Sequence record: MK903282.1
Direction: 5' to 3' (one strand)
DNA: 64,000 nt
Origin: Escherichia phage Mansfield
The notes beneath the pieces are model-generated. The model was given only the letters and a program-made list of their open reading frames with translations. It was not told the DNA's origin and did not search any database. A program made the position numbers and the translations under genes. This document shows positions 7,610-52,855 of the stretch, one piece after another; the stretch's first letter is position 1; every line of letters starts with the position of its first letter.

Positions 7610-9985
7610 ATGAAAATTCTTGGCATAAAACTCTGGGAGAAGACGCAACCAGAAGCCGAACCAGCGGAGATGCCGCCAGGCGACCCATTGGCACCGTTTG
7701 AACGCCTTGAAAGGCGCGGCAGCGGTCAACGCTGGGAAAAGACTGAAAGCAATCGACCGACCTTTAAAACGGTTGATGACTTCCCTTTATATGAACCTGA
7801 TATTAATGGCGACGGTGTTGCTATCATAAAAGGTCGTTCAGTCGATTCCGCAACAGTATCCAAAAAGGTTATGGATAATGCCTTGAAGAACATCAGTTCA
7901 GAAGGGCAGGTCAACCCATACACAGTCCCTATTCAACTTCAAAACTGGTATTTGTCACAGTCATTCATCGGCTATCAAGCTTGTGCCATCATCGCACAGC
8001 ACTGGCTGGTGAACAAGGCGTGTTCCATGGTAGGCCGCGATGCGGTCCGTAAAGGCTGGGAAGTCAAATCCAGTTCTGAGTCAGAATTATCAGTGCAGGC
8101 CAGCGAACGCCTAAAGCAAATTGATAAAGAATTTAATATCAAAGAGCACTTAGTTGAAGCCGAACGATTCAAAAATATTTTTGGTATCCGCGTCATCATA
8201 TTTGATGTGCGTAGTGATGACCCAGAATACTACAGCAAACCTTTTAACATTGATGGTGTGACAAAGGGGTCTTATAAGGGAATCATTCAGGTTGACCCTT
8301 ATTGGATGATGCCATTTTTGACGTCTGAAAACACCGCCGACCCTGCATCACAGCACTTCTATGATCCAGAATACTGGGTGATCAGTGGACAACGTTATCA
8401 TCGAAGCCACCTGATCATTTTGCGCAACGATGAGCCAGCTGATATTCTCAAGCCGACTTATATTTACGGCGGCATTCCTTTGACTCAGCAGATTTATGAA
8501 CGCATCTATGCCGCTGAGCGTACCGCTAACGAAGCGCCATTGCTGGCGATGTCCAAGCGTACAACCACGCTGCGGACCGACGTTGACAAGGCGATTGCCA
8601 ATGAGAGGTCTTTTGCTGAACGTCTGATGATGTGGATTAAGTACCGCGACAACTATGCAGTCAAAGTGCTTGGTCAAAAAGAAGAGATGGACCAGTTCGA
8701 CATCAACTTGTCAGACTTCGATAGCATCATCATGAACCAGTACCAGCTGGTGGCTGCAATCGCAAAAGTTCCGTCAACCAAACTTCTTGGGACTTCGCCA
8801 AAAGGCTTTAACGCCACTGGTGAATTTGAGATGGTCAGCTATCACGAAGAGTTGGAAACTTGCCAGCAGCATGACCTGACAAAAATTCTCGACCGCCATT
8901 ACAAAATCCTTCTCAAATCAGAAGGGGTGGAAGTCGATGTTAAGGTCGCATGGGAACCAGTTGGCTCACTTACTGCTACTCAACTTGCAGAAATCAACGA
9001 CAAGCGAGCTAACACTGGCAAAACTCTTATTGATGCTGGCGTCATTTCTCCTGATGAAGAGCGCGACCGCATCAAAGACGACAAAAACAGCGGCTACAAC
9101 CGTCTGCCGGAAGACGCAGCAGAAGAAACCCCAGGGATGTCTCCAGAGAATATGGCATTGCTTGGCAAGTCTGCTGGTGAAGTCCTGCAAGGCAAGGCCG
9201 ATATTGAACAGGCGAAAGCTGATGTCGTTAAGATGGGCGGCCAGTTCTATAGCGAAACAGGTATTATGCCAGAAGGTGCCGCGCGTGGTGAGTTGGCGGA
9301 AAACCCTGACAAAGCGCCTGTCGAAATCAACATGGACGATACCGATGATGAATCAAGCCATCAGGTTGATGTCCTAACGCAGTTGAAAGAAGGTCTGGAG
9401 GGTATTGCTGATTATTACCTGAAAGAAGGTCAGGATGTGGATTTTGACCCTCAAAAAGATTCACGGTCGGTACAACCGTCTACCCTTCCAAGCGTCAAAG
9501 GTAATGTCGTTAACTTACGACACAACGTTGGAAAGATGGATGCAGCATCGTTACCTAAGATGAAGTTGCACGGGCTGATTCTTGGGATTGAGAATCCTCG
9601 CAACAGCATCCGTAGAGGGAACAGCCTTGACGGTGAATGGGCAGTCAAGATGCCGCATCACTACGGATTCATCAAGGGCACTAAGGGCGCGGACGGCGAT
9701 GAAGTCGACTGCTTTGTTGGTCCAAATATGAAGTCGCCGAAGGTCTTTATCGTTAACCAGAATGATAATTACTCTGGCGAGTTTGATGAACACAAGTGCA
9801 TGCTTGGATTCGATTCAGCAGAAGAAGCGAAAGAAGCTTATCAAGCATCATTTGGTAACGGGTGGAACGGATTTGACTCAATCCACGAATTGGATGTAAA
9901 CTCGTTCAAGGAGTGGTTGAAGGGTGATTGCTCTCAAGCATACGGAGCACTCAATAATCCTACTAATTCACCGAAGCAAGGTTGA
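7610..9985 (+). CDS. portal protein with C-terminal inorganic pyrophosphatase-like domain
   Basis: ORF track 7577 is a TTG start; ATG at 7610 has AGGTGG RBS 8 nt upstream. About 790 aa, immediately after terminase; acidic linker then C-terminal domain with HYGFIKGT...GADGDEVDCFVG matching family I pyrophosphatase signature. Confidence 0.7.
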   Translation: MKILGIKLWEKTQPEAEPAEMPPGDPLAPFERLERRGSGQRWEKTESNRPTFKTVDDFPLYEPDINGDGVAIIKGRSVDSATVSKKVMDNALKNISSEGQVNPYTVPIQLQNWYLSQSFIGYQACAIIAQHWLVNKACSMVGRDAVRKGWEVKSSSESELSVQASERLKQIDKEFNIKEHLVEAERFKNIFGIRVIIFDVRSDDPEYYSKPFNIDGVTKGSYKGIIQVDPYWMMPFLTSENTADPASQHFYDPEYWVISGQRYHRSHLIILRNDEPADILKPTYIYGGIPLTQQIYERIYAAERTANEAPLLAMSKRTTTLRTDVDKAIANERSFAERLMMWIKYRDNYAVKVLGQKEEMDQFDINLSDFDSIIMNQYQLVAAIAKVPSTKLLGTSPKGFNATGEFEMVSYHEELETCQQHDLTKILDRHYKILLKSEGVEVDVKVAWEPVGSLTATQLAEINDKRANTGKTLIDAGVISPDEERDRIKDDKNSGYNRLPEDAAEETPGMSPENMALLGKSAGEVLQGKADIEQAKADVVKMGGQFYSETGIMPEGAARGELAENPDKAPVEINMDDTDDESSHQVDVLTQLKEGLEGIADYYLKEGQDVDFDPQKDSRSVQPSTLPSVKGNVVNLRHNVGKMDAASLPKMKLHGLILGIENPRNSIRRGNSLDGEWAVKMPHHYGFIKGTKGADGDEVDCFVGPNMKSPKVFIVNQNDNYSGEFDEHKCMLGFDSAEEAKEAYQASFGNGWNGFDSIHELDVNSFKEWLKGDCSQAYGALNNPTNSPKQG

Positions 9986-47461: not shown

Positions 47462-47908
47462 TTAACGGTAATTCACTAATTGTTGATCACCAGAGAAGGT
47501 GCAATGATAAACGAATTGTGCGTTGTAAAGCAATTGAAAACTTTTCTTTGGTTCATTATTAGCACTCATCGATGTGAATACTTCTGCACCGGAACGGTTT
47601 TCACCAATCAGATTGATAAAGCCGCCAGTTGAACGAGGTTGAACGAAAGTGAAACGTTGCATCCACGGAGTACGGTTGGCACCTTTCCCTGTGAATCCCT
47701 GAATCTGAATATTCAGACCTTCTTGCTCGTTAACACCGATGTAAGTGGTAATCGTTGCACCAGTTGTCGCTGCGGTCTTACCGTCCATCGCTTCACAATC
47801 GTAAACAGCGATTGAATCGGAAGTACGGACGGCAGCTTCAGTCGCTTCCATATACATGGTGCCGAGAATAGCAGTTGCGGCAAGCGCGATTCCAGTGATT
47901 CGTTTCAT
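47462..47908 (-). CDS. secreted protein with signal peptide
   Basis: 148 aa; MKRITGIALAATAILGTMYMEATEAA signal-peptide-like N-terminus. Confidence 0.45.
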   Translation of the reverse strand: MKRITGIALAATAILGTMYMEATEAAVRTSDSIAVYDCEAMDGKTAATTGATITTYIGVNEQEGLNIQIQGFTGKGANRTPWMQRFTFVQPRSTGGFINLIGENRSGAEVFTSMSANNEPKKSFQLLYNAQFVYHCTFSGDQQLVNYR

Positions 47909-47973: not shown

Positions 47974-48969
47974 TTATTTATTAGCAATATAAGCAAATTT
48001 TTGATAGTTATTTGCTTTGATGAGTTTTTCAACTTCAGCAAGGTCATGAGCGACGTCATCAAGCAAAATGTTGCGCCAGGTAGCAAATCGACCGACACTA
48101 AACACATTCAAATCCATAGTCAGCTGCAGGAGTAGGGCGTGTCGCAAGTCCTTCGGAATGTCGACAATCTTGCCATATTTCTGGTCGACCTTTTCAACTT
48201 CTTCAAGAGCAATGTCACTCCATGAGAGGCCAAAGGCTGTCAACACTTCGTCGACTTCTGCGCGCAACTTCATGTCACGGTAACGAGTGATGCCGCCAGC
48301 GGCTTCAACTGCAGCTGCACTTACGCTGACCAAAGGAATAGTTTCAATGATAAGCGTGTCACCAGTGATTGATGCGCGGTAAGTTCTGACGGAGTAGTCA
48401 GGGAAGTAAATCGTCTGATACAACTCGCACTTACGTTTAATCTTAAAGCGATAAACACGAATATTTGCCTTATCAAATGAGAAATCAAGCTTTTGATCAA
48501 TCCCAGCCAGCTTCATCATGACTGGCAGCGGCGACGTGTTGATGATTGGCGTCTCGCTATAGCCGCAAAGAGTATCAACCGGAGTATTAAAGAATATGCG
48601 GTCACCCAGTTTGTCGACAAGCTGATCATAAAAGTCATCAGGTGCAATATAACGCGTTGCAGTTTTAAGCTTCATAATTGAACGGCTGCCAAACTGATTG
48701 GTGACCTTCATGGAATACATATTGGCAAGGTTGATTGGGCAATGGTCGTGGTAGTAGTTGCCGCGAAAATACACAGCCTTGTCAACTGTCACGGCCTTGA
48801 AAGGGATTCCGGTAATACGGCTTACTTCTTCGCCGCGAAAGCGTAGAAGCGCCTTGTGCTGTTGCGCTCGTTCCCCTGCTTCGTACACAATAGAGTTCGG
48901 GAAGTGACACGCTGTGATAAGTCCTGCCAGTCCGCCGCCGATAATCATTACAGGTTGTTTCATGTTCAT
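47974..48969 (-). CDS. FAD/NAD(P)-binding oxidoreductase
   Basis: 331 aa; N-terminal Rossmann dinucleotide-binding motif VMIIGGGLAGLITA. Confidence 0.55.
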   Translation of the reverse strand: MNMKQPVMIIGGGLAGLITACHFPNSIVYEAGERAQQHKALLRFRGEEVSRITGIPFKAVTVDKAVYFRGNYYHDHCPINLANMYSMKVTNQFGSRSIMKLKTATRYIAPDDFYDQLVDKLGDRIFFNTPVDTLCGYSETPIINTSPLPVMMKLAGIDQKLDFSFDKANIRVYRFKIKRKCELYQTIYFPDYSVRTYRASITGDTLIIETIPLVSVSAAAVEAAGGITRYRDMKLRAEVDEVLTAFGLSWSDIALEEVEKVDQKYGKIVDIPKDLRHALLLQLTMDLNVFSVGRFATWRNILLDDVAHDLAEVEKLIKANNYQKFAYIANK

Positions 48970-49102
48970 TTGTCCTTTGTGGGTGATATGAGAAGTATAA
49001 TAGCTAAATTATTTTACAGCAACAAGTCATTTTATTTAGTACAGATGAAAAAAAGACCCACAACAAGTGTGGGTCAATTACCGCTGCATAACCGTCCTAA
49101 GG

Positions 49103-49948
49103 TTATTCCGCTTGATCACCGTCTTCGGCATCTTCGTTGGATTCAACATCGACAAACTCGATGTGACCCATCTCTTCCAGCTTGCTCAGGTAGGAGCGAA
49201 CTGAAGCGCCAAACAGTTGATCTTTAACTTTTTCGCCCAGCTCATCGATAGACTGTGCCACGCCAACTTCGCCTTCTTTGATCGCCGCCAGAACGCGTCC
49301 ACGGGTGGAATGCTCTTGCGGCTGACTCAGGCCATTGCCAGTGTAGATGAAGTGAGTAGCTTTTGCACGACGCTGACCATTGGCCTTTTTGGCAGCCTTA
49401 CGTTCTGCGATGGCTTTGCGACGTTCTTCAGCTTCTTGCTTACGCTGTTCTTTCTGCTGTTCTGCAGCTTCTTTCGCCGCAATCTTAGCAGCTTCACGCT
49501 CTGCCTTGCGTTTCGCTTTGGCTTCTTCTTTGGCCTTCTCTTTTTCGGCCTTCGCTGCAGCACGGGCTTGATCACGCTCTGCTTTCTTAGCAGCAGCTTG
49601 TTCAGCTTTCAGGCGCTTGGCTTCTTCTTTAGCCTTTGCCTTTTCGATTTCTTTCGCTGCTTTAGCGGCTTCACGCTCTGCTTTCTTAGCAGCAGCCTTT
49701 TCTGCACGCTCTTTGGCCTTCTTGGCTGCTTCTTCAGCACGCTTCTGAGCCTTCTCATCAGCAGCCTGCTTGCGTTTCAGGGCAGCTTCTTCACGCTTGG
49801 CTTGTTTTTCCTGCTCACGCTTCTGGCGTTTTTCTTCGGCTTCTTTCTTTTTAGCCAGACGTTTTTCTTCAGCCACGCGACGACGTTCTGCTGCAGCTGC
49901 TTGTTTTTCTTCTTTAGATAATACTTTGATTGCTTCGGCCATGTTCAC
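49103..49948 (-). CDS. charged single-alpha-helix (ER/K-rich) protein with C-terminal globular domain
   Basis: 281 aa; about 200 residues of near-pure K/A/E/R/Q, then a globular segment and acidic tail. Confidence 0.6.
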   Translation of the reverse strand: MNMAEAIKVLSKEEKQAAAAERRRVAEEKRLAKKKEAEEKRQKREQEKQAKREEAALKRKQAADEKAQKRAEEAAKKAKERAEKAAAKKAEREAAKAAKEIEKAKAKEEAKRLKAEQAAAKKAERDQARAAAKAEKEKAKEEAKAKRKAEREAAKIAAKEAAEQQKEQRKQEAEERRKAIAERKAAKKANGQRRAKATHFIYTGNGLSQPQEHSTRGRVLAAIKEGEVGVAQSIDELGEKVKDQLFGASVRSYLSKLEEMGHIEFVDVESNEDAEDGDQAE

Positions 49949-50101
49949 AGTCCTTAAATAAATTAGTTTATTTTATATTCCCCGTTTGGGATAACTTAAT
50001 TATGCCTTCAGTCGCCGCCAGTAGCAACTAAAAACTCTGGCGGCAATGCCACTTTAATTAAACTGATTTTCAGTTTTATTTTTCGTAAATTTACGTCAAC
50101 A

Positions 50102-51286
50102 TTAACGCGCTTTCAAATCACGGTACACGGTCAGATTCTTTTTAGCGCGGGTAATAGCGGTGTACATCATCTTTGCATACGGAACGCCGCGCAGGATTTC
50201 TTCCAACACGCACACATTGTCCCACTCGCTGCCTTGCGATTTGTGCACCGTTATGACATAGCCATAGTCCATGCCTCCAACGGCTCGTTGGGCCTCTTTG
50301 CGCACTTCCTGATCAGTAGAGAAGGAAAGAGGATTTATCTTCACCTTTATATCTTTGCCATCGGTAAGCGAGCGCAAGTTGACATACATGATTTCATTAG
50401 ACTCGTCTTCATCCCTTTCAAAGTCCGGCACTGGCTCATAACTAATAACAATCCCTTGCTCGCCATTACAGAATCCTGGACCGTGTTGGTTGAATGTGCA
50501 AATAACTTTCTCTCCGATTCCTGGCATCGGCGTTATACGTCCGCTCACTTGCCGCAATAATGAATTCCATTTATCTTTGGTGCTATTATATGAGCAAATA
50601 ATTTGATCATCTTCGCCCATGAATTTCTTCAACGCAGTAACGCGCGGCGATTCAGCCAACACCTTGACATCATCGTATTCGCGCGGAGGAAGTCGGTTGC
50701 CCTGTCGCACGAAGAAGGAAGCGCGGATGATGTTGGACTCTTTCCCTTGCCGCATGATTTCGGTTAACAGTACGTCAACGGCATCTTCAGTAAAGTAGGC
50801 GGCGGCTTTTACCGGAGGGACTTGTCCAATGTCGCCTAATGCCAGAACAGGGATGCGGTGATCAAGAAGGCGCTCTGTGTCCCACTCGCCAACCATTGAA
50901 GCTTCATCAAGGACGACAAGATGCGGCCTTTCATCAAGCGTTGACTTCCTTGCAAAGATTGGTTCATTGTCATCGTTAACGCCGCGCACGTTATAGATGA
51001 ACTGGTGAAGGGTCTTAGCGCCACGACACCCTTTCTGCTTCAATCGGCTGGCGGCCTTTCCGGTCGGCGCAATATAAATGGCACCGTACTCACCGACACA
51101 ACGGCGCACAATCTCACGCGCAATAGAGGTTTTACCTGTTCCTGCATAGCCAGCGATGAAAAACACGCGCTTCGTTGTTTTGCCGTCCTGCAATCGCTTG
51201 TACCATGCAACGGCCTTTTCGATGGCGTCAATCTGTTGCGCGTTAAACTGAATCACTGGCTCATCATTAAATTCTGGAATGTTCAT
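50102..51286 (-). CDS. Dda/RecD/Pif1-like superfamily 1 DNA helicase
   Basis: Walker A GYAGTGKTS, Walker B VLDEASMV, motifs LGDIGQ, TVHKSQGSEWD, YTAITRAK. Confidence 0.85.
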   Translation of the reverse strand: MNIPEFNDEPVIQFNAQQIDAIEKAVAWYKRLQDGKTTKRVFFIAGYAGTGKTSIAREIVRRCVGEYGAIYIAPTGKAASRLKQKGCRGAKTLHQFIYNVRGVNDDNEPIFARKSTLDERPHLVVLDEASMVGEWDTERLLDHRIPVLALGDIGQVPPVKAAAYFTEDAVDVLLTEIMRQGKESNIIRASFFVRQGNRLPPREYDDVKVLAESPRVTALKKFMGEDDQIICSYNSTKDKWNSLLRQVSGRITPMPGIGEKVICTFNQHGPGFCNGEQGIVISYEPVPDFERDEDESNEIMYVNLRSLTDGKDIKVKINPLSFSTDQEVRKEAQRAVGGMDYGYVITVHKSQGSEWDNVCVLEEILRGVPYAKMMYTAITRAKKNLTVYRDLKAR

Positions 51287-51612: not shown

Positions 51613-51715
51613 TTCAGGCGACCTTTGTTAGTGCGGAAATATTTTCTGATAGTATAATTGCAGATATAGTATAAAGCAAAGTAAATCGAAATTGTGAACT
51701 AAATGGTAAATATTG

Positions 51716-51743
51716 TTGACTTTGTATCACTCAATATTATACT
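51716..51743 (+). promoter_or_regulatory. sigma70-like promoter for plus-strand early operon
   Basis: TTGACT-N16-TATACT; a mirror TTGCTT-N17-TATACT reads on the minus strand about 51640-51670 (divergent promoters). Confidence 0.4.
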
Positions 51744-51772
51744 GCAGGTATTGATCACCGAAGGAAAGAAAG

Positions 51773-52855
51773 ATGGCTAGTTTAAGAGAAGAAGCAAAAA
51801 TAATCGAAGAGTTTTTGACAGAACTCCAAAGAGGCATTCCAGAAGATGAACGCGTCATGACCGTGTTTGCGCCTGAAGCAACGGTGCAGACCGACGAGCG
51901 CGGCAAAAAGATTAACAGCAGCTTCTGGCCTAAGCCTTGGAAGCTTGGCAAGCCGCTGATGCAACATCAGAACGGTTACGCCTGCATAAGTTCAATGCGT
52001 AAGTCTCCCAACCCAAAGACAGGCGAGATGCGATACTGGCGCACGGAATCGGCTTTCGGTCATGGCATGGCGATGATGGTCGACGACATCGGTCACGGTA
52101 AAGGGTCCAAAGGCGATTTAGATTTAGAGTTCTTTTTCGAGAGTCTGAAGCCAACCGTCATTGTTGAGACTTCACCGAACAACCACCAGCTGTGGTATTT
52201 CTTTAAAGACCCGATTGACCATCTTATCCAGTTCAAAGCATTCCTTGGGTCTTTCGTAAACATGGTACTCAAGAAGGGCGGCGACAACACGATTAAAGAC
52301 GTGACGCGCGTGGGCCGTGTTCCTGGTTGCATCAACAACAAGCGTGTGACTCACGACGGCCCTTACAAATATGTCGATGAGAACGGCGACCCGTTCCGCT
52401 GCCGACTTGTCCATGCAGACTATTCTTTGCGATACACAATCGAAGAGATTTGCCAAGCCTTCGGTTTCCACGTCGTTATGCCGCAAAAGCGTGAAATTCA
52501 AATCGACGTTGACGAATACAAATATGATGCTGTTTGGTATAAAATAGCCCAGCAAATCCTTGCTCGCAATAAGATGGGTGAAGGGTCCGATGGCGATGTT
52601 GTTGAAAACATGTCAGGTAAATGCCGCATCATCTGCCCTTGGGGTGAAGAGCACACCAACGGCGACCCATATGGCGCTTACTTTCGCGGCCCAATCCCTG
52701 GCGCTGAACATGAATTCGTTTTCGGTTGCGCTCACGACTGTCACCGGAAAGGTGAAGGTAAGAAAGGCTGGACAGCTTTTGTTGAAGCAGTAGTCATGCC
52801 TTATATTGAGAATCAACTTGATATGATAAATCGTCGCGCAGGTGGCATAAAATAG
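51773..52855 (+). CDS. primase-polymerase (archaeo-eukaryotic primase-type Prim-Pol) with C-terminal Cys/His cluster
   Basis: AEP-like motifs MMVDDIGH, NHQLWYFF, RVGRVPGCINNK; C-terminal CRIICPWGEEH...CAHDCH zinc-binding-like cluster. Confidence 0.55.
   Translation: MASLREEAKIIEEFLTELQRGIPEDERVMTVFAPEATVQTDERGKKINSSFWPKPWKLGKPLMQHQNGYACISSMRKSPNPKTGEMRYWRTESAFGHGMAMMVDDIGHGKGSKGDLDLEFFFESLKPTVIVETSPNNHQLWYFFKDPIDHLIQFKAFLGSFVNMVLKKGGDNTIKDVTRVGRVPGCINNKRVTHDGPYKYVDENGDPFRCRLVHADYSLRYTIEEICQAFGFHVVMPQKREIQIDVDEYKYDAVWYKIAQQILARNKMGEGSDGDVVENMSGKCRIICPWGEEHTNGDPYGAYFRGPIPGAEHEFVFGCAHDCHRKGEGKKGWTAFVEAVVMPYIENQLDMINRRAGGIK

Follow-up and report, generated by a model that had tools for sequence, protein, structure and literature searches.

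Peptides rich in Ala, Glu and Lys (Marqusee-Baldwin), EAAAK linkers and ER/K motifs form stable monomeric helices. Helices with an 11-residue (hendecad) repeat occur in group-3 LEA proteins, in the 11-mers of apolipoproteins and alpha-synuclein, and in right-handed coiled coils. Plasmid KfrA and H-NS pair a DNA-binding domain with a long helical region, and T4 internal proteins, phi29 p6, SPO1 TF1 and adenovirus protein VII represent the phage internal and viral histone-like proteins. The protein described here, called the rod protein below, is like each of these in part. It is encoded on the minus strand at positions 49103-49942 of a 64,000-nucleotide stretch of Escherichia phage Mansfield (MK903282.1), and this whole stretch is referred to as the window. 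The phage is a Wifcevirus (Lindbergviridae), an E. coli myophage and kin of Pseudomonas phage PB1. The rod protein carries a long helix with a basic and an acidic stripe on opposite faces, followed by a domain that is winged-helix-like in the structural model, and its orthologs have been detected in CsCl-purified phage preparations. From the sequence, the model and these data we read it, tentatively and at somewhat below even chances, as an abundant, virion-associated DNA-binding rod. The parts of the gene are as follows.

49103..49942, minus strand: coding sequence (CDS) of the rod protein, 279 amino acids (aa); ATG at 49942, stop codon at 49105-49103
49388..49915, minus strand: helix, residues 10-185 of the AlphaFold2 (AF2) model; ~26 nm, net charge +23, 16 uninterrupted hendecads
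49151..49378, minus strand: basic arm and predicted winged-helix-like domain, residues 189-264; topology b1-H1-b2-H2-H3-b3
49106..49150, minus strand: acidic tail, residues 265-279 (VDVESNEDAEDGDQAE region); net charge -8, predicted local distance difference test score (pLDDT) <50, disordered

The full-length AF2 model, built on a 10-sequence alignment, gives a single unbroken helix over residues 10-185 (176 residues, ~26 nm) with pLDDT of about 86-98; after the helix it places a short linker, the compact domain and the tail. Residues 9-188 consist of K, A, E, R and Q to 94% (A 55, K 44, E 38, R 20, Q 12, with 7 aliphatic residues), and in 20-residue windows taken from residue 11 to 190 the fraction of these five stays between 0.85 and 1.0. 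An earlier note on this DNA had described about 200 residues of almost pure K/A/E/R/Q. The composition holds and the string AEEKRQKREQEKQAKREEAALKRK is present, but the stretch extends over ~180 residues. The same note had classed the helix as an ER/K-type single alpha-helix. That it is a long, charged helix poor in hydrophobic residues agrees with the AF2 model, yet the ER/K label does not fit well. The helix has 58% charged residues, 31% Ala and ~4% aliphatic residues, and it contains 34 opposite-charge pairs at i+4, where composition-preserving shuffles give 28.2+/-4.1 (z=+1.4). Pairs at i+3 likewise reach only z=+1.4 over such shuffles, and the less stabilising K->E orientation is commoner than E->K (22 vs 12 pairs).

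The strongest signal in the helix is a charge periodicity of 3.65 residues, with a power of 7.9 compared with 4.4 for the 99th-percentile shuffle. Pairs of like charge are overrepresented at lags 7, 8, 11, 15, 18, 26 and 33 (z=+3 to +5; +4.5 at lag 11 and +5.0 at lag 26) and depleted at lags 5, 12-14, 16 and 20-21. The repeat is therefore 11/3, that is, a hendecad. In the hendecad, K/R make up 56-75% of positions 1, 4, 8 and 11, with no acidic residue at 4, 8 or 11; E/D make up 38-50% of positions 3, 6, 9 and 10, with no basic residue at 9. At the period of 11/3 the vectors of K/R and E/D lie 176 degrees apart, Ala is unphased (R=0.01), and the phase of the register drifts by ~50 degrees over 155 residues, unbroken through 16 hendecads. 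The helix thus has one basic and one acidic face, each nearly straight along its whole length. A second charge peak of the window protein lies at 8.95 residues (p<0.003). Of the 22 homologues tested, only 3 show a significant 6-10-residue band (p<0.05), against 21 with the periodicity of 3.65-3.70 residues at p<=0.01. In the ten family members examined, the window protein included, the register continues unbroken over 140-180 residues. What is conserved between genera in the charged helix is the stripe pattern, not the sequence.

No heptad periodicity is present in the helix: at 3.5, Ala has a vector strength R of 0.04 and LIVM (n=7) one of 0.18, and neither Ala nor the hydrophobic residues peak near 3.5. 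A canonical heptad coiled coil, which was considered, is ruled out since the hydrophobic 3.5-residue periodicity is missing. The hendecads similarly hold no apolar stripe that could form a core or a lipid-binding face, for positions 1, 4, 8 and 11 are K/R and Ala is unphased.

The likeness to described helices is accordingly a partial one. As in the ER/K helices of the myosin VI/X lever extensions and caldesmon, and in A(EAAAK)n linkers, the rod helix is very long, poor in hydrophobic residues, rich in E/K/R/A and predicted to be uninterrupted, and the window protein shares with ER/K helices a charge period of ~9 residues. It differs from them in its lower charge density (58%), its 31% Ala, the lack of a significant i/i+4 excess of opposite charges, the family-conserved arrangement of like charges in 11/3 stripes, and the absence of an N-terminal domain before the helix. 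With the hendecad-repeat helices it shares the 11/3 register and the nearly straight stripes, and it is K/A/E-rich as the LEA 11-mers are. Unlike them, it has no apolar stripe, and K/R occupy the a/d/e/h-like positions. K/R at these positions rule out both membrane binding and a hydrophobic coiled-coil core.

Within the helix-coding DNA, positions 49518-49696 contain an imperfect 99-nucleotide (nt) tandem duplication (1.8 copies, 79% match). Its unit equals 33 aa, or three hendecads, which suggests that the helix may have grown by duplication in register.

The C-terminal part had been described as a small globular segment followed by an acidic tail, and this is borne out by a confident AF2 fold of 76 residues and 15 further residues with a net charge of -8. 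Most homologues have acidic tails, variable in length. When the C-terminal 92 residues are modelled separately by AF2, the model has a pLDDT of 82, a predicted template modelling score of 0.72 and a core with pLDDT >90. Its elements, numbered within the 92 residues, are E10-13, H26-35, E42-44, H45-51, H61-70 and E74-77. Helix 3, SVRSYLSKLEEMGH, hardly varies within the family, and nor does the GxRRxKATH basic arm before the domain; on the surface, the invariant positions are R, S, S and K of helix 3, together with the RR.KATH arm. Helix 3 fits the pattern S-x-x-S-x-x-L-x-K-L-E-x-x-G-(I/L/V), which we take to be the recognition-helix signature of ArsR/MarR/TrmB-type domains. With this signature and the H1-strand-H2-H3-strand topology of the AF2 model, the domain is like winged helices of the ArsR/MarR/Fur/BlaI type, and we describe it, on the basis of the model, as winged-helix-like. 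The invariance of the basic arm and helix 3 suggests DNA binding. A nucleic-acid-associated role, at which the earlier note had hinted, is plausible because the folded domain appears winged-helix-like.

With a single small putative DNA-binding domain and a long helical region, the predicted architecture also recalls KfrA and H-NS. Unlike in these proteins and in the ArsR/MarR/Fur/BlaI winged helices, the domain is C-terminal, lacks a hairpin wing and matches no Pfam, NCBIfam or PDB sequence, and the rod helix has no hydrophobic oligomerisation seam. Searches of Pfam, NCBIfam and PDB sequences with the full protein, the C-terminal domain and a domain profile gave nothing significant. Foldseek comparison of the domain model with the PDB gave no significant match, and among the BFVD viral models only the protein's own family was found, under the names "TolA protein" or "putative structural protein". 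A sub-threshold match of four homologues to NA37, a nucleoid-associated protein, was rejected as noise, as it scored 11-12 bits on re-scan.

Detection of the protein in gradient-purified phage is documented for a close relative. CsCl-purified vB_Eco4M-7 and ECML-117 were analysed by liquid chromatography-tandem mass spectrometry (MS) by Necel et al. (PMC7048862). The ortholog vB_Eco4M-7_83 ("TolA protein", 31.1 kDa) was detected with 7 peptides, 25.8% coverage and a score of 1197.6, which ranks 6th of 33 proteins, above the portal, major capsid and sheath proteins (PMC7048862). It differs from the window protein by 2 aa, and its published mass agrees with the 31.14 kDa computed for the latter (279 aa, computed pI 9.6). 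The modest coverage is explained by the scarcity of suitable tryptic peptides: the window protein yields exactly 7 of >=7 residues, and 70 of their 91 residues lie in the C-terminal part. The depositors of LMA2 and KTN6 label their orthologs structural proteins. In SCUT-S1 the ortholog is absent from the MS list of LiCl/DNase 'ghost' particles, which fits, weakly, a protein that leaves with the DNA. The rod protein thus resembles phage internal and viral histone-like proteins in being basic, apparently abundant and seen in preparations of purified particles although its gene lies away from the structural module; it differs from them in showing no sequence or fold kinship and no identified capsid-targeting or protease-cleavage signal.

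A second replication-side protein of ~31-32 kDa also appears repeatedly in particle MS, namely SCUT-S1 ORF54 (8405-9304) with 8 peptides and, in PMC7048862, vB_Eco4M-7_70 with 12 peptides and PI34_gp68. These proteins are likened here by size and by the place of their genes outside the structural cluster.

The gene is a genuine, translated and strongly conserved core gene of PB1-like myophages. Nine independently sequenced and assembled Wifcevirus genomes were aligned for an analysis by codon position. The 86 variable CDS sites fall on positions 3/1/2 as 78/7/1, the CDS is free of indels, and the protein has 279 aa in all nine. In the helix there is one substitution (Q169K) compared with ~45 synonymous changes. 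The protein matches the PHROG 4765 profile with E 3e-84, residues 1-279 corresponding to profile positions 14-271 of 294. The earlier note had allowed that the region might not be translated or might be a repeat-collapse assembly artefact. The first does not apply, for ortholog peptides were detected by mass spectrometry (PMC7048862), and the second is ruled out by the equal gene length and the absence of indels in nine independent assemblies. The long open reading frame (ORF) on the opposite strand, which the note had judged artefactual, is indeed present and is a shadow, because the variable third (wobble) positions of the minus-strand frame fall on its first codon positions.

49217..49921, plus strand: antisense ORF, 234 aa, F/L/S/C-rich; a shadow, no gene

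How such a protein could act may be pictured as follows. The winged-helix domain and the basic arm would anchor the rod protein on DNA, and the 26-nm helix would place its basic stripe along a DNA duplex or between duplexes. Alternatively, copies of the protein could zip side by side through their complementary stripes. Either arrangement would produce a histone-like rod that coats or bridges DNA. The protein would be made in quantity and packaged, at least in part, with the genome, and would probably enter the cell with it. The acidic tails of SSB-type proteins and HMGB1 fold back on basic parts or recruit partners; the tail of the rod protein may similarly compete with DNA by folding back on its basic parts, or may recruit a partner. 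A bolder version holds that Lindbergviridae package tens of copies of a 'phage histone', with the two-faced 26-nm helix and the winged-helix genome anchor, which is injected with the DNA and would organise it or shield it from host nucleases and defence systems in the first minutes of infection. We consider this version unlikely.

Several observations weigh against a virion-associated DNA-binding rod. In the AF2 model no beta-hairpin wing follows helix 3; there is one strand (74-77), and the sheet is completed by an N-terminal strand. Among the closest folds, several are winged helices that bind protein, namely those of RPA32C, Scc1 and ScpB. The net charge of the helix is +23 in the window protein but +4 to +13 in most homologues. 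The gene lies in the replication/nucleotide-metabolism module, outside the structural module, and the candidate promoter before it is a consensus match only, with no conservation in PB1. In the MS study the ECML-117 ortholog gave only 2 peptides with a score of 3.21, and the non-structural helicase, glyoxalase and reductase were detected as well (PMC7048862). Neither of the cryo-EM papers, on Pa193 and on E217, mentions the rod protein in its searchable main text, a silence that would also fit, weakly, a protein that travels with the DNA.

Other explanations start from the helix. It could be a monomeric ER/K-type single alpha-helix that serves as a rigid spacer or lever for the globular domain. 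An aliphatic content of only 4%, the lack of 3.5-residue Ala or hydrophobic periodicity, the single straight helix given by AF2 at high confidence, the charge period of ~9 residues (p<0.003), which is within the ER/K range, and the spread of helix lengths in the family, 50 to 190 residues with the composition maintained, all agree with this. A spacer, however, would have nothing to hold apart, since only 9 residues precede the helix, and the 'rigid spacer' of the earlier note, which needs something at both ends, is not supported as stated. The excess of opposite-charge i/i+4 pairs is no more than z=+1.4, and among them the less favourable K->E orientation prevails; the mixture of 58% charged residues with 31% Ala is unlike canonical ER/K, and the 6-10-residue period is significant in 3/22 homologues compared with 21/22 for the 11/3 stripes. 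Moreover, a pure spacer needs no segregation of like charges on opposite faces, and the helix is near-invariant within the genus, with one substitution against ~45 synonymous changes. The spacer is for these reasons improbable. Alternatively, the striped helices could self-assemble into a fibre, scaffold or filament, pairing through charge-complementary interfaces lined by Ala, as in hendecad (right-handed) coiled coils, and attached by way of the winged helix. An unbroken 11/3 register over 16 hendecads is a hallmark of nearly straight helical bundles, the basic face of one chain could pair with the acidic face of another, the GenBank note on vB_Eco4M-7 reads 'coiled-coil structure found', and several records are annotated as structural protein. 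Yet the would-be hendecad core positions hold K/R instead of hydrophobics, Ala has no significant periodicity (R=0.01 at 11/3), the cryo-EM papers on Pa193 and E217 make no mention of the protein in their searchable text, and in Pa193 a scaffolding role is already given to another gene. We hold self-assembly to be very unlikely.

Explanations that start from the gene's surroundings or its database name have also to be weighed. The winged-helix domains of RPA32C and PriA bind protein, and the acidic tails of SSB, T7 gp2.5 and T4 gp32 recruit partners. By analogy, the rod protein could be a replication accessory or adaptor, in which the winged helix binds a protein and the acidic tail recruits helicase, polymerase or primase, the virion signal being carry-over. 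The position of the gene directly after the Dda/RecD-like helicase in PB1-like phages, its retention within a module of RepB primase, ThyX, PNKP and DnaE polymerase in distant 35-45-kb phages, and the commonness of acidic tails in the family all favour an adaptor, as do the non-structural proteins in the same MS sample (PMC7048862). The distant members that keep the domain without a helicase neighbour argue the other way, as do the lack of sequence similarity to known replication factors in the Pfam, NCBIfam and PDB searches and an MS score above portal and capsid and ~500x that of the DNA helicase vB_Eco4M-7_73 (PMC7048862). An adaptor is, on balance, doubtful. The databases offer a further reading. 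The protein is annotated as TolA in FEC19, ECML-117, Ro157lw, vB_Eco4M-7, Epa7, MTx and BcepF1, and a note in the LMA2 record calls the ortholog 'cell wall associated protein'. The sole support for a TolA-like envelope protein is compositional resemblance to the K/A/E-rich, helical domain II of TolA. In BLASTP with composition adjustment, the best match to E. coli TolA has an E of 0.078 and covers 29 residues. PF06519, the TolA C-terminal domain, is absent from the rod protein even at E<=1, whereas the control E. coli TolA scores 2e-38. The N-terminus, MAEAIKVLSKEEK, shows neither a transmembrane anchor nor a signal peptide, the hydrophobic fraction is <=0.2 before the C-terminal domain, and the charge peak of TolA domain II lies at 7.2 residues compared with 3.65 in the rod protein. 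Membership in the TolA family is thus ruled out by the tests of alignment, domain, anchor and charge period, and a TolA-like or cell-wall-associated role is hardly credible. The LMA2 note most likely stems from the same low-complexity resemblance. The wrong name "TolA" is carried in the databases, and its correction is useful in itself.

The family to which the DNA-binding rod proposed here belongs is PHROG 4765, which has no assigned function there and no Pfam model. An exhaustive search with a hidden Markov model profile of the C-terminal domain through 1.84 billion cluster representatives found 38 proteins only. Word-indexed protein search returned 8 matches with the full-length query, which was swamped by low complexity, and 4 with the domain query. 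By tblastn with the C-terminal 89 aa, 356 phage records were found, mostly Pbunavirus (293 Pseudomonas phage records), with relatives on Serratia, Burkholderia, Xanthomonas, Pantoea and Vibrio. The Pbunavirus orthologs include PB1 gp69/ORF66, LMA2 gp66, 14-1 gp67, Pa193_084 and SCUT-S1_069. Among Wifceviruses, the 4-kb region round the gene is 99.3% identical in Escherichia phage EC150 and mostly 95-98% identical in ~28 other genomes, the most divergent being near 94-95%. The papers on KTN6, JG024, KIL, FoX and Banzai contain no statement on the gene. In members that have a K/A/E region it measures about 50-190 residues, with composition kept and sequence unalignable. The distant members P0039-P0045 keep the domain, and in place of the helix have a small globular N-domain and a Pro/Ala-rich linker. 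Ten distant family members have no Pfam domain.

Several metagenomic homologues (P0004-P0007 and P0013) have a His-rich N-terminus (MSHGHHHH..., ...GHTHG...) before the charged helix, which the Wifcevirus protein lacks. This extension may be metal-binding or purely compositional.

The control elements and the upstream neighbour of the gene are listed below.

49951..49955, minus strand: Shine-Dalgarno sequence AAGGA, 8 nt upstream of the ATG, read from the sequence
49055..49075, minus strand: intrinsic terminator, 28 nt past the stop codon; 8-bp stem with 5 GC pairs, then a T7 run
49999..50027, minus strand: candidate sigma-70-like promoter TTGCTA-17-CATAAT, by consensus match
50102-51286, minus strand: Dda/RecD-like helicase gene upstream of the rod gene; AAA_30 and UvrD_C_2 domains, PHROG 325

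The ORF listing reaches an in-frame GTG at 49948 on the minus strand (49103..49948). The true start is almost certainly the ATG at 49942, not this GTG, because the AAGGA lies 8 nt 5' of the ATG and the relatives annotate an 840-nt CDS, as every one of them in GenBank does. The terminator 3' of the gene is carried as an annotation in the WFH and WFC records, and the orthologs of PB1, LMA2 and KTN6 have an equivalent strong terminator 3' of them. The candidate promoter sits in the 153-nt spacer between the helicase gene and the rod gene. The upstream regions of Wifcevirus, 14-1 and two metagenomic orthologs are unalignable, so that no common promoter or operator is definable among them.

A perfect 8-bp inverted repeat, GCCGCCAG-N15-CTGGCGGC, lies at 50014-50044, is unique in the 64-kb window and overlaps the -35 hexamer of the candidate promoter. 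This repeat might serve as an operator or, in RNA, form a hairpin at the helicase transcript's end.

The gene had been placed between a helicase and a metabolic block, and so it is: the Dda/RecD-like helicase lies on one side, and ThyX, polynucleotide kinase (PNK) and a FabG-like gene on the other. Upstream on the minus strand, a 108-aa ORF belongs to the same leftward operon as the helicase. Downstream come the terminator, a PHROG 4828 gene (331 aa), a 148-aa ORF, ThyX, polynucleotide kinase and the FabG-like reductase. This gene order is common to PB1, LMA2, 14-1, SCUT-S1 and metagenomic phages, the rod-family gene being followed directly by the PHROG 4828 gene and later by ThyX, also in 35-45-kb contigs without the Dda helicase, in which the PHROG 4828 neighbour has 38-40% identity. 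Because the PHROG 4828 gene is always adjacent downstream, even in distant contigs, the two proteins may be a functional pair.

The 331-aa PHROG 4828 protein (47974-48969, minus strand) has an N-terminal GGGLAGL motif of the dinucleotide-binding type and no match in Pfam, NCBIfam or PDB sequences. The 148-aa ORF between its gene and ThyX (47462-47908, minus strand) begins with the signal-peptide-like MKRITGIALAATAILG and matches nothing in PHROG, Pfam or NCBIfam. The leftward operon and a RepB-type primase gene read rightward (51773-52855) are separated by a 160-nt divergent intergenic region at 51613-51772, a candidate for a divergent promoter or an origin. Two of the 35-45-kb contigs, L020 and L021, carry RepB primase, DUF5906 helicase, the winged-helix protein, PHROG 4828, ThyX, PNKP, SDR, RNase T and DnaE polymerase, and L020 also bears a Hendrixvirinae-type small terminase. 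From these contigs the replication/nucleotide-metabolism module seems to be common beyond PB1-like myophages.

The gene was already in the databases and its product had been seen by MS, while its function and architecture are undescribed in the searchable literature. Charged long helices and winged-helix domains are parts of known kinds. Their combination, and a charge-only hendecad register with opposite basic and acidic faces, appear to be new. With its charge-only hendecads over ~26 nm the helix departs from textbook ER/K single helices, and it could be a natural example of a rod whose charge pattern lets it bind polyanions or assemble with itself by electrostatic attraction.

PB1-like phages belong to those most often used in therapy against Pseudomonas, and for E. 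coli O157 the Wifceviruses are candidates. The rod protein is a conserved, apparently abundant and uncharacterised component of both. If it is packaged with the DNA, it would add a genome-associated protein to the myophage virion, on which the searchable text of the cryo-EM papers is silent, and it might bear on protection against host defences early in infection. The 'phage histone', if true, would represent a class of genome-associated virion protein not described before in tailed phages, with a charge-only hendecad helix as its basis.

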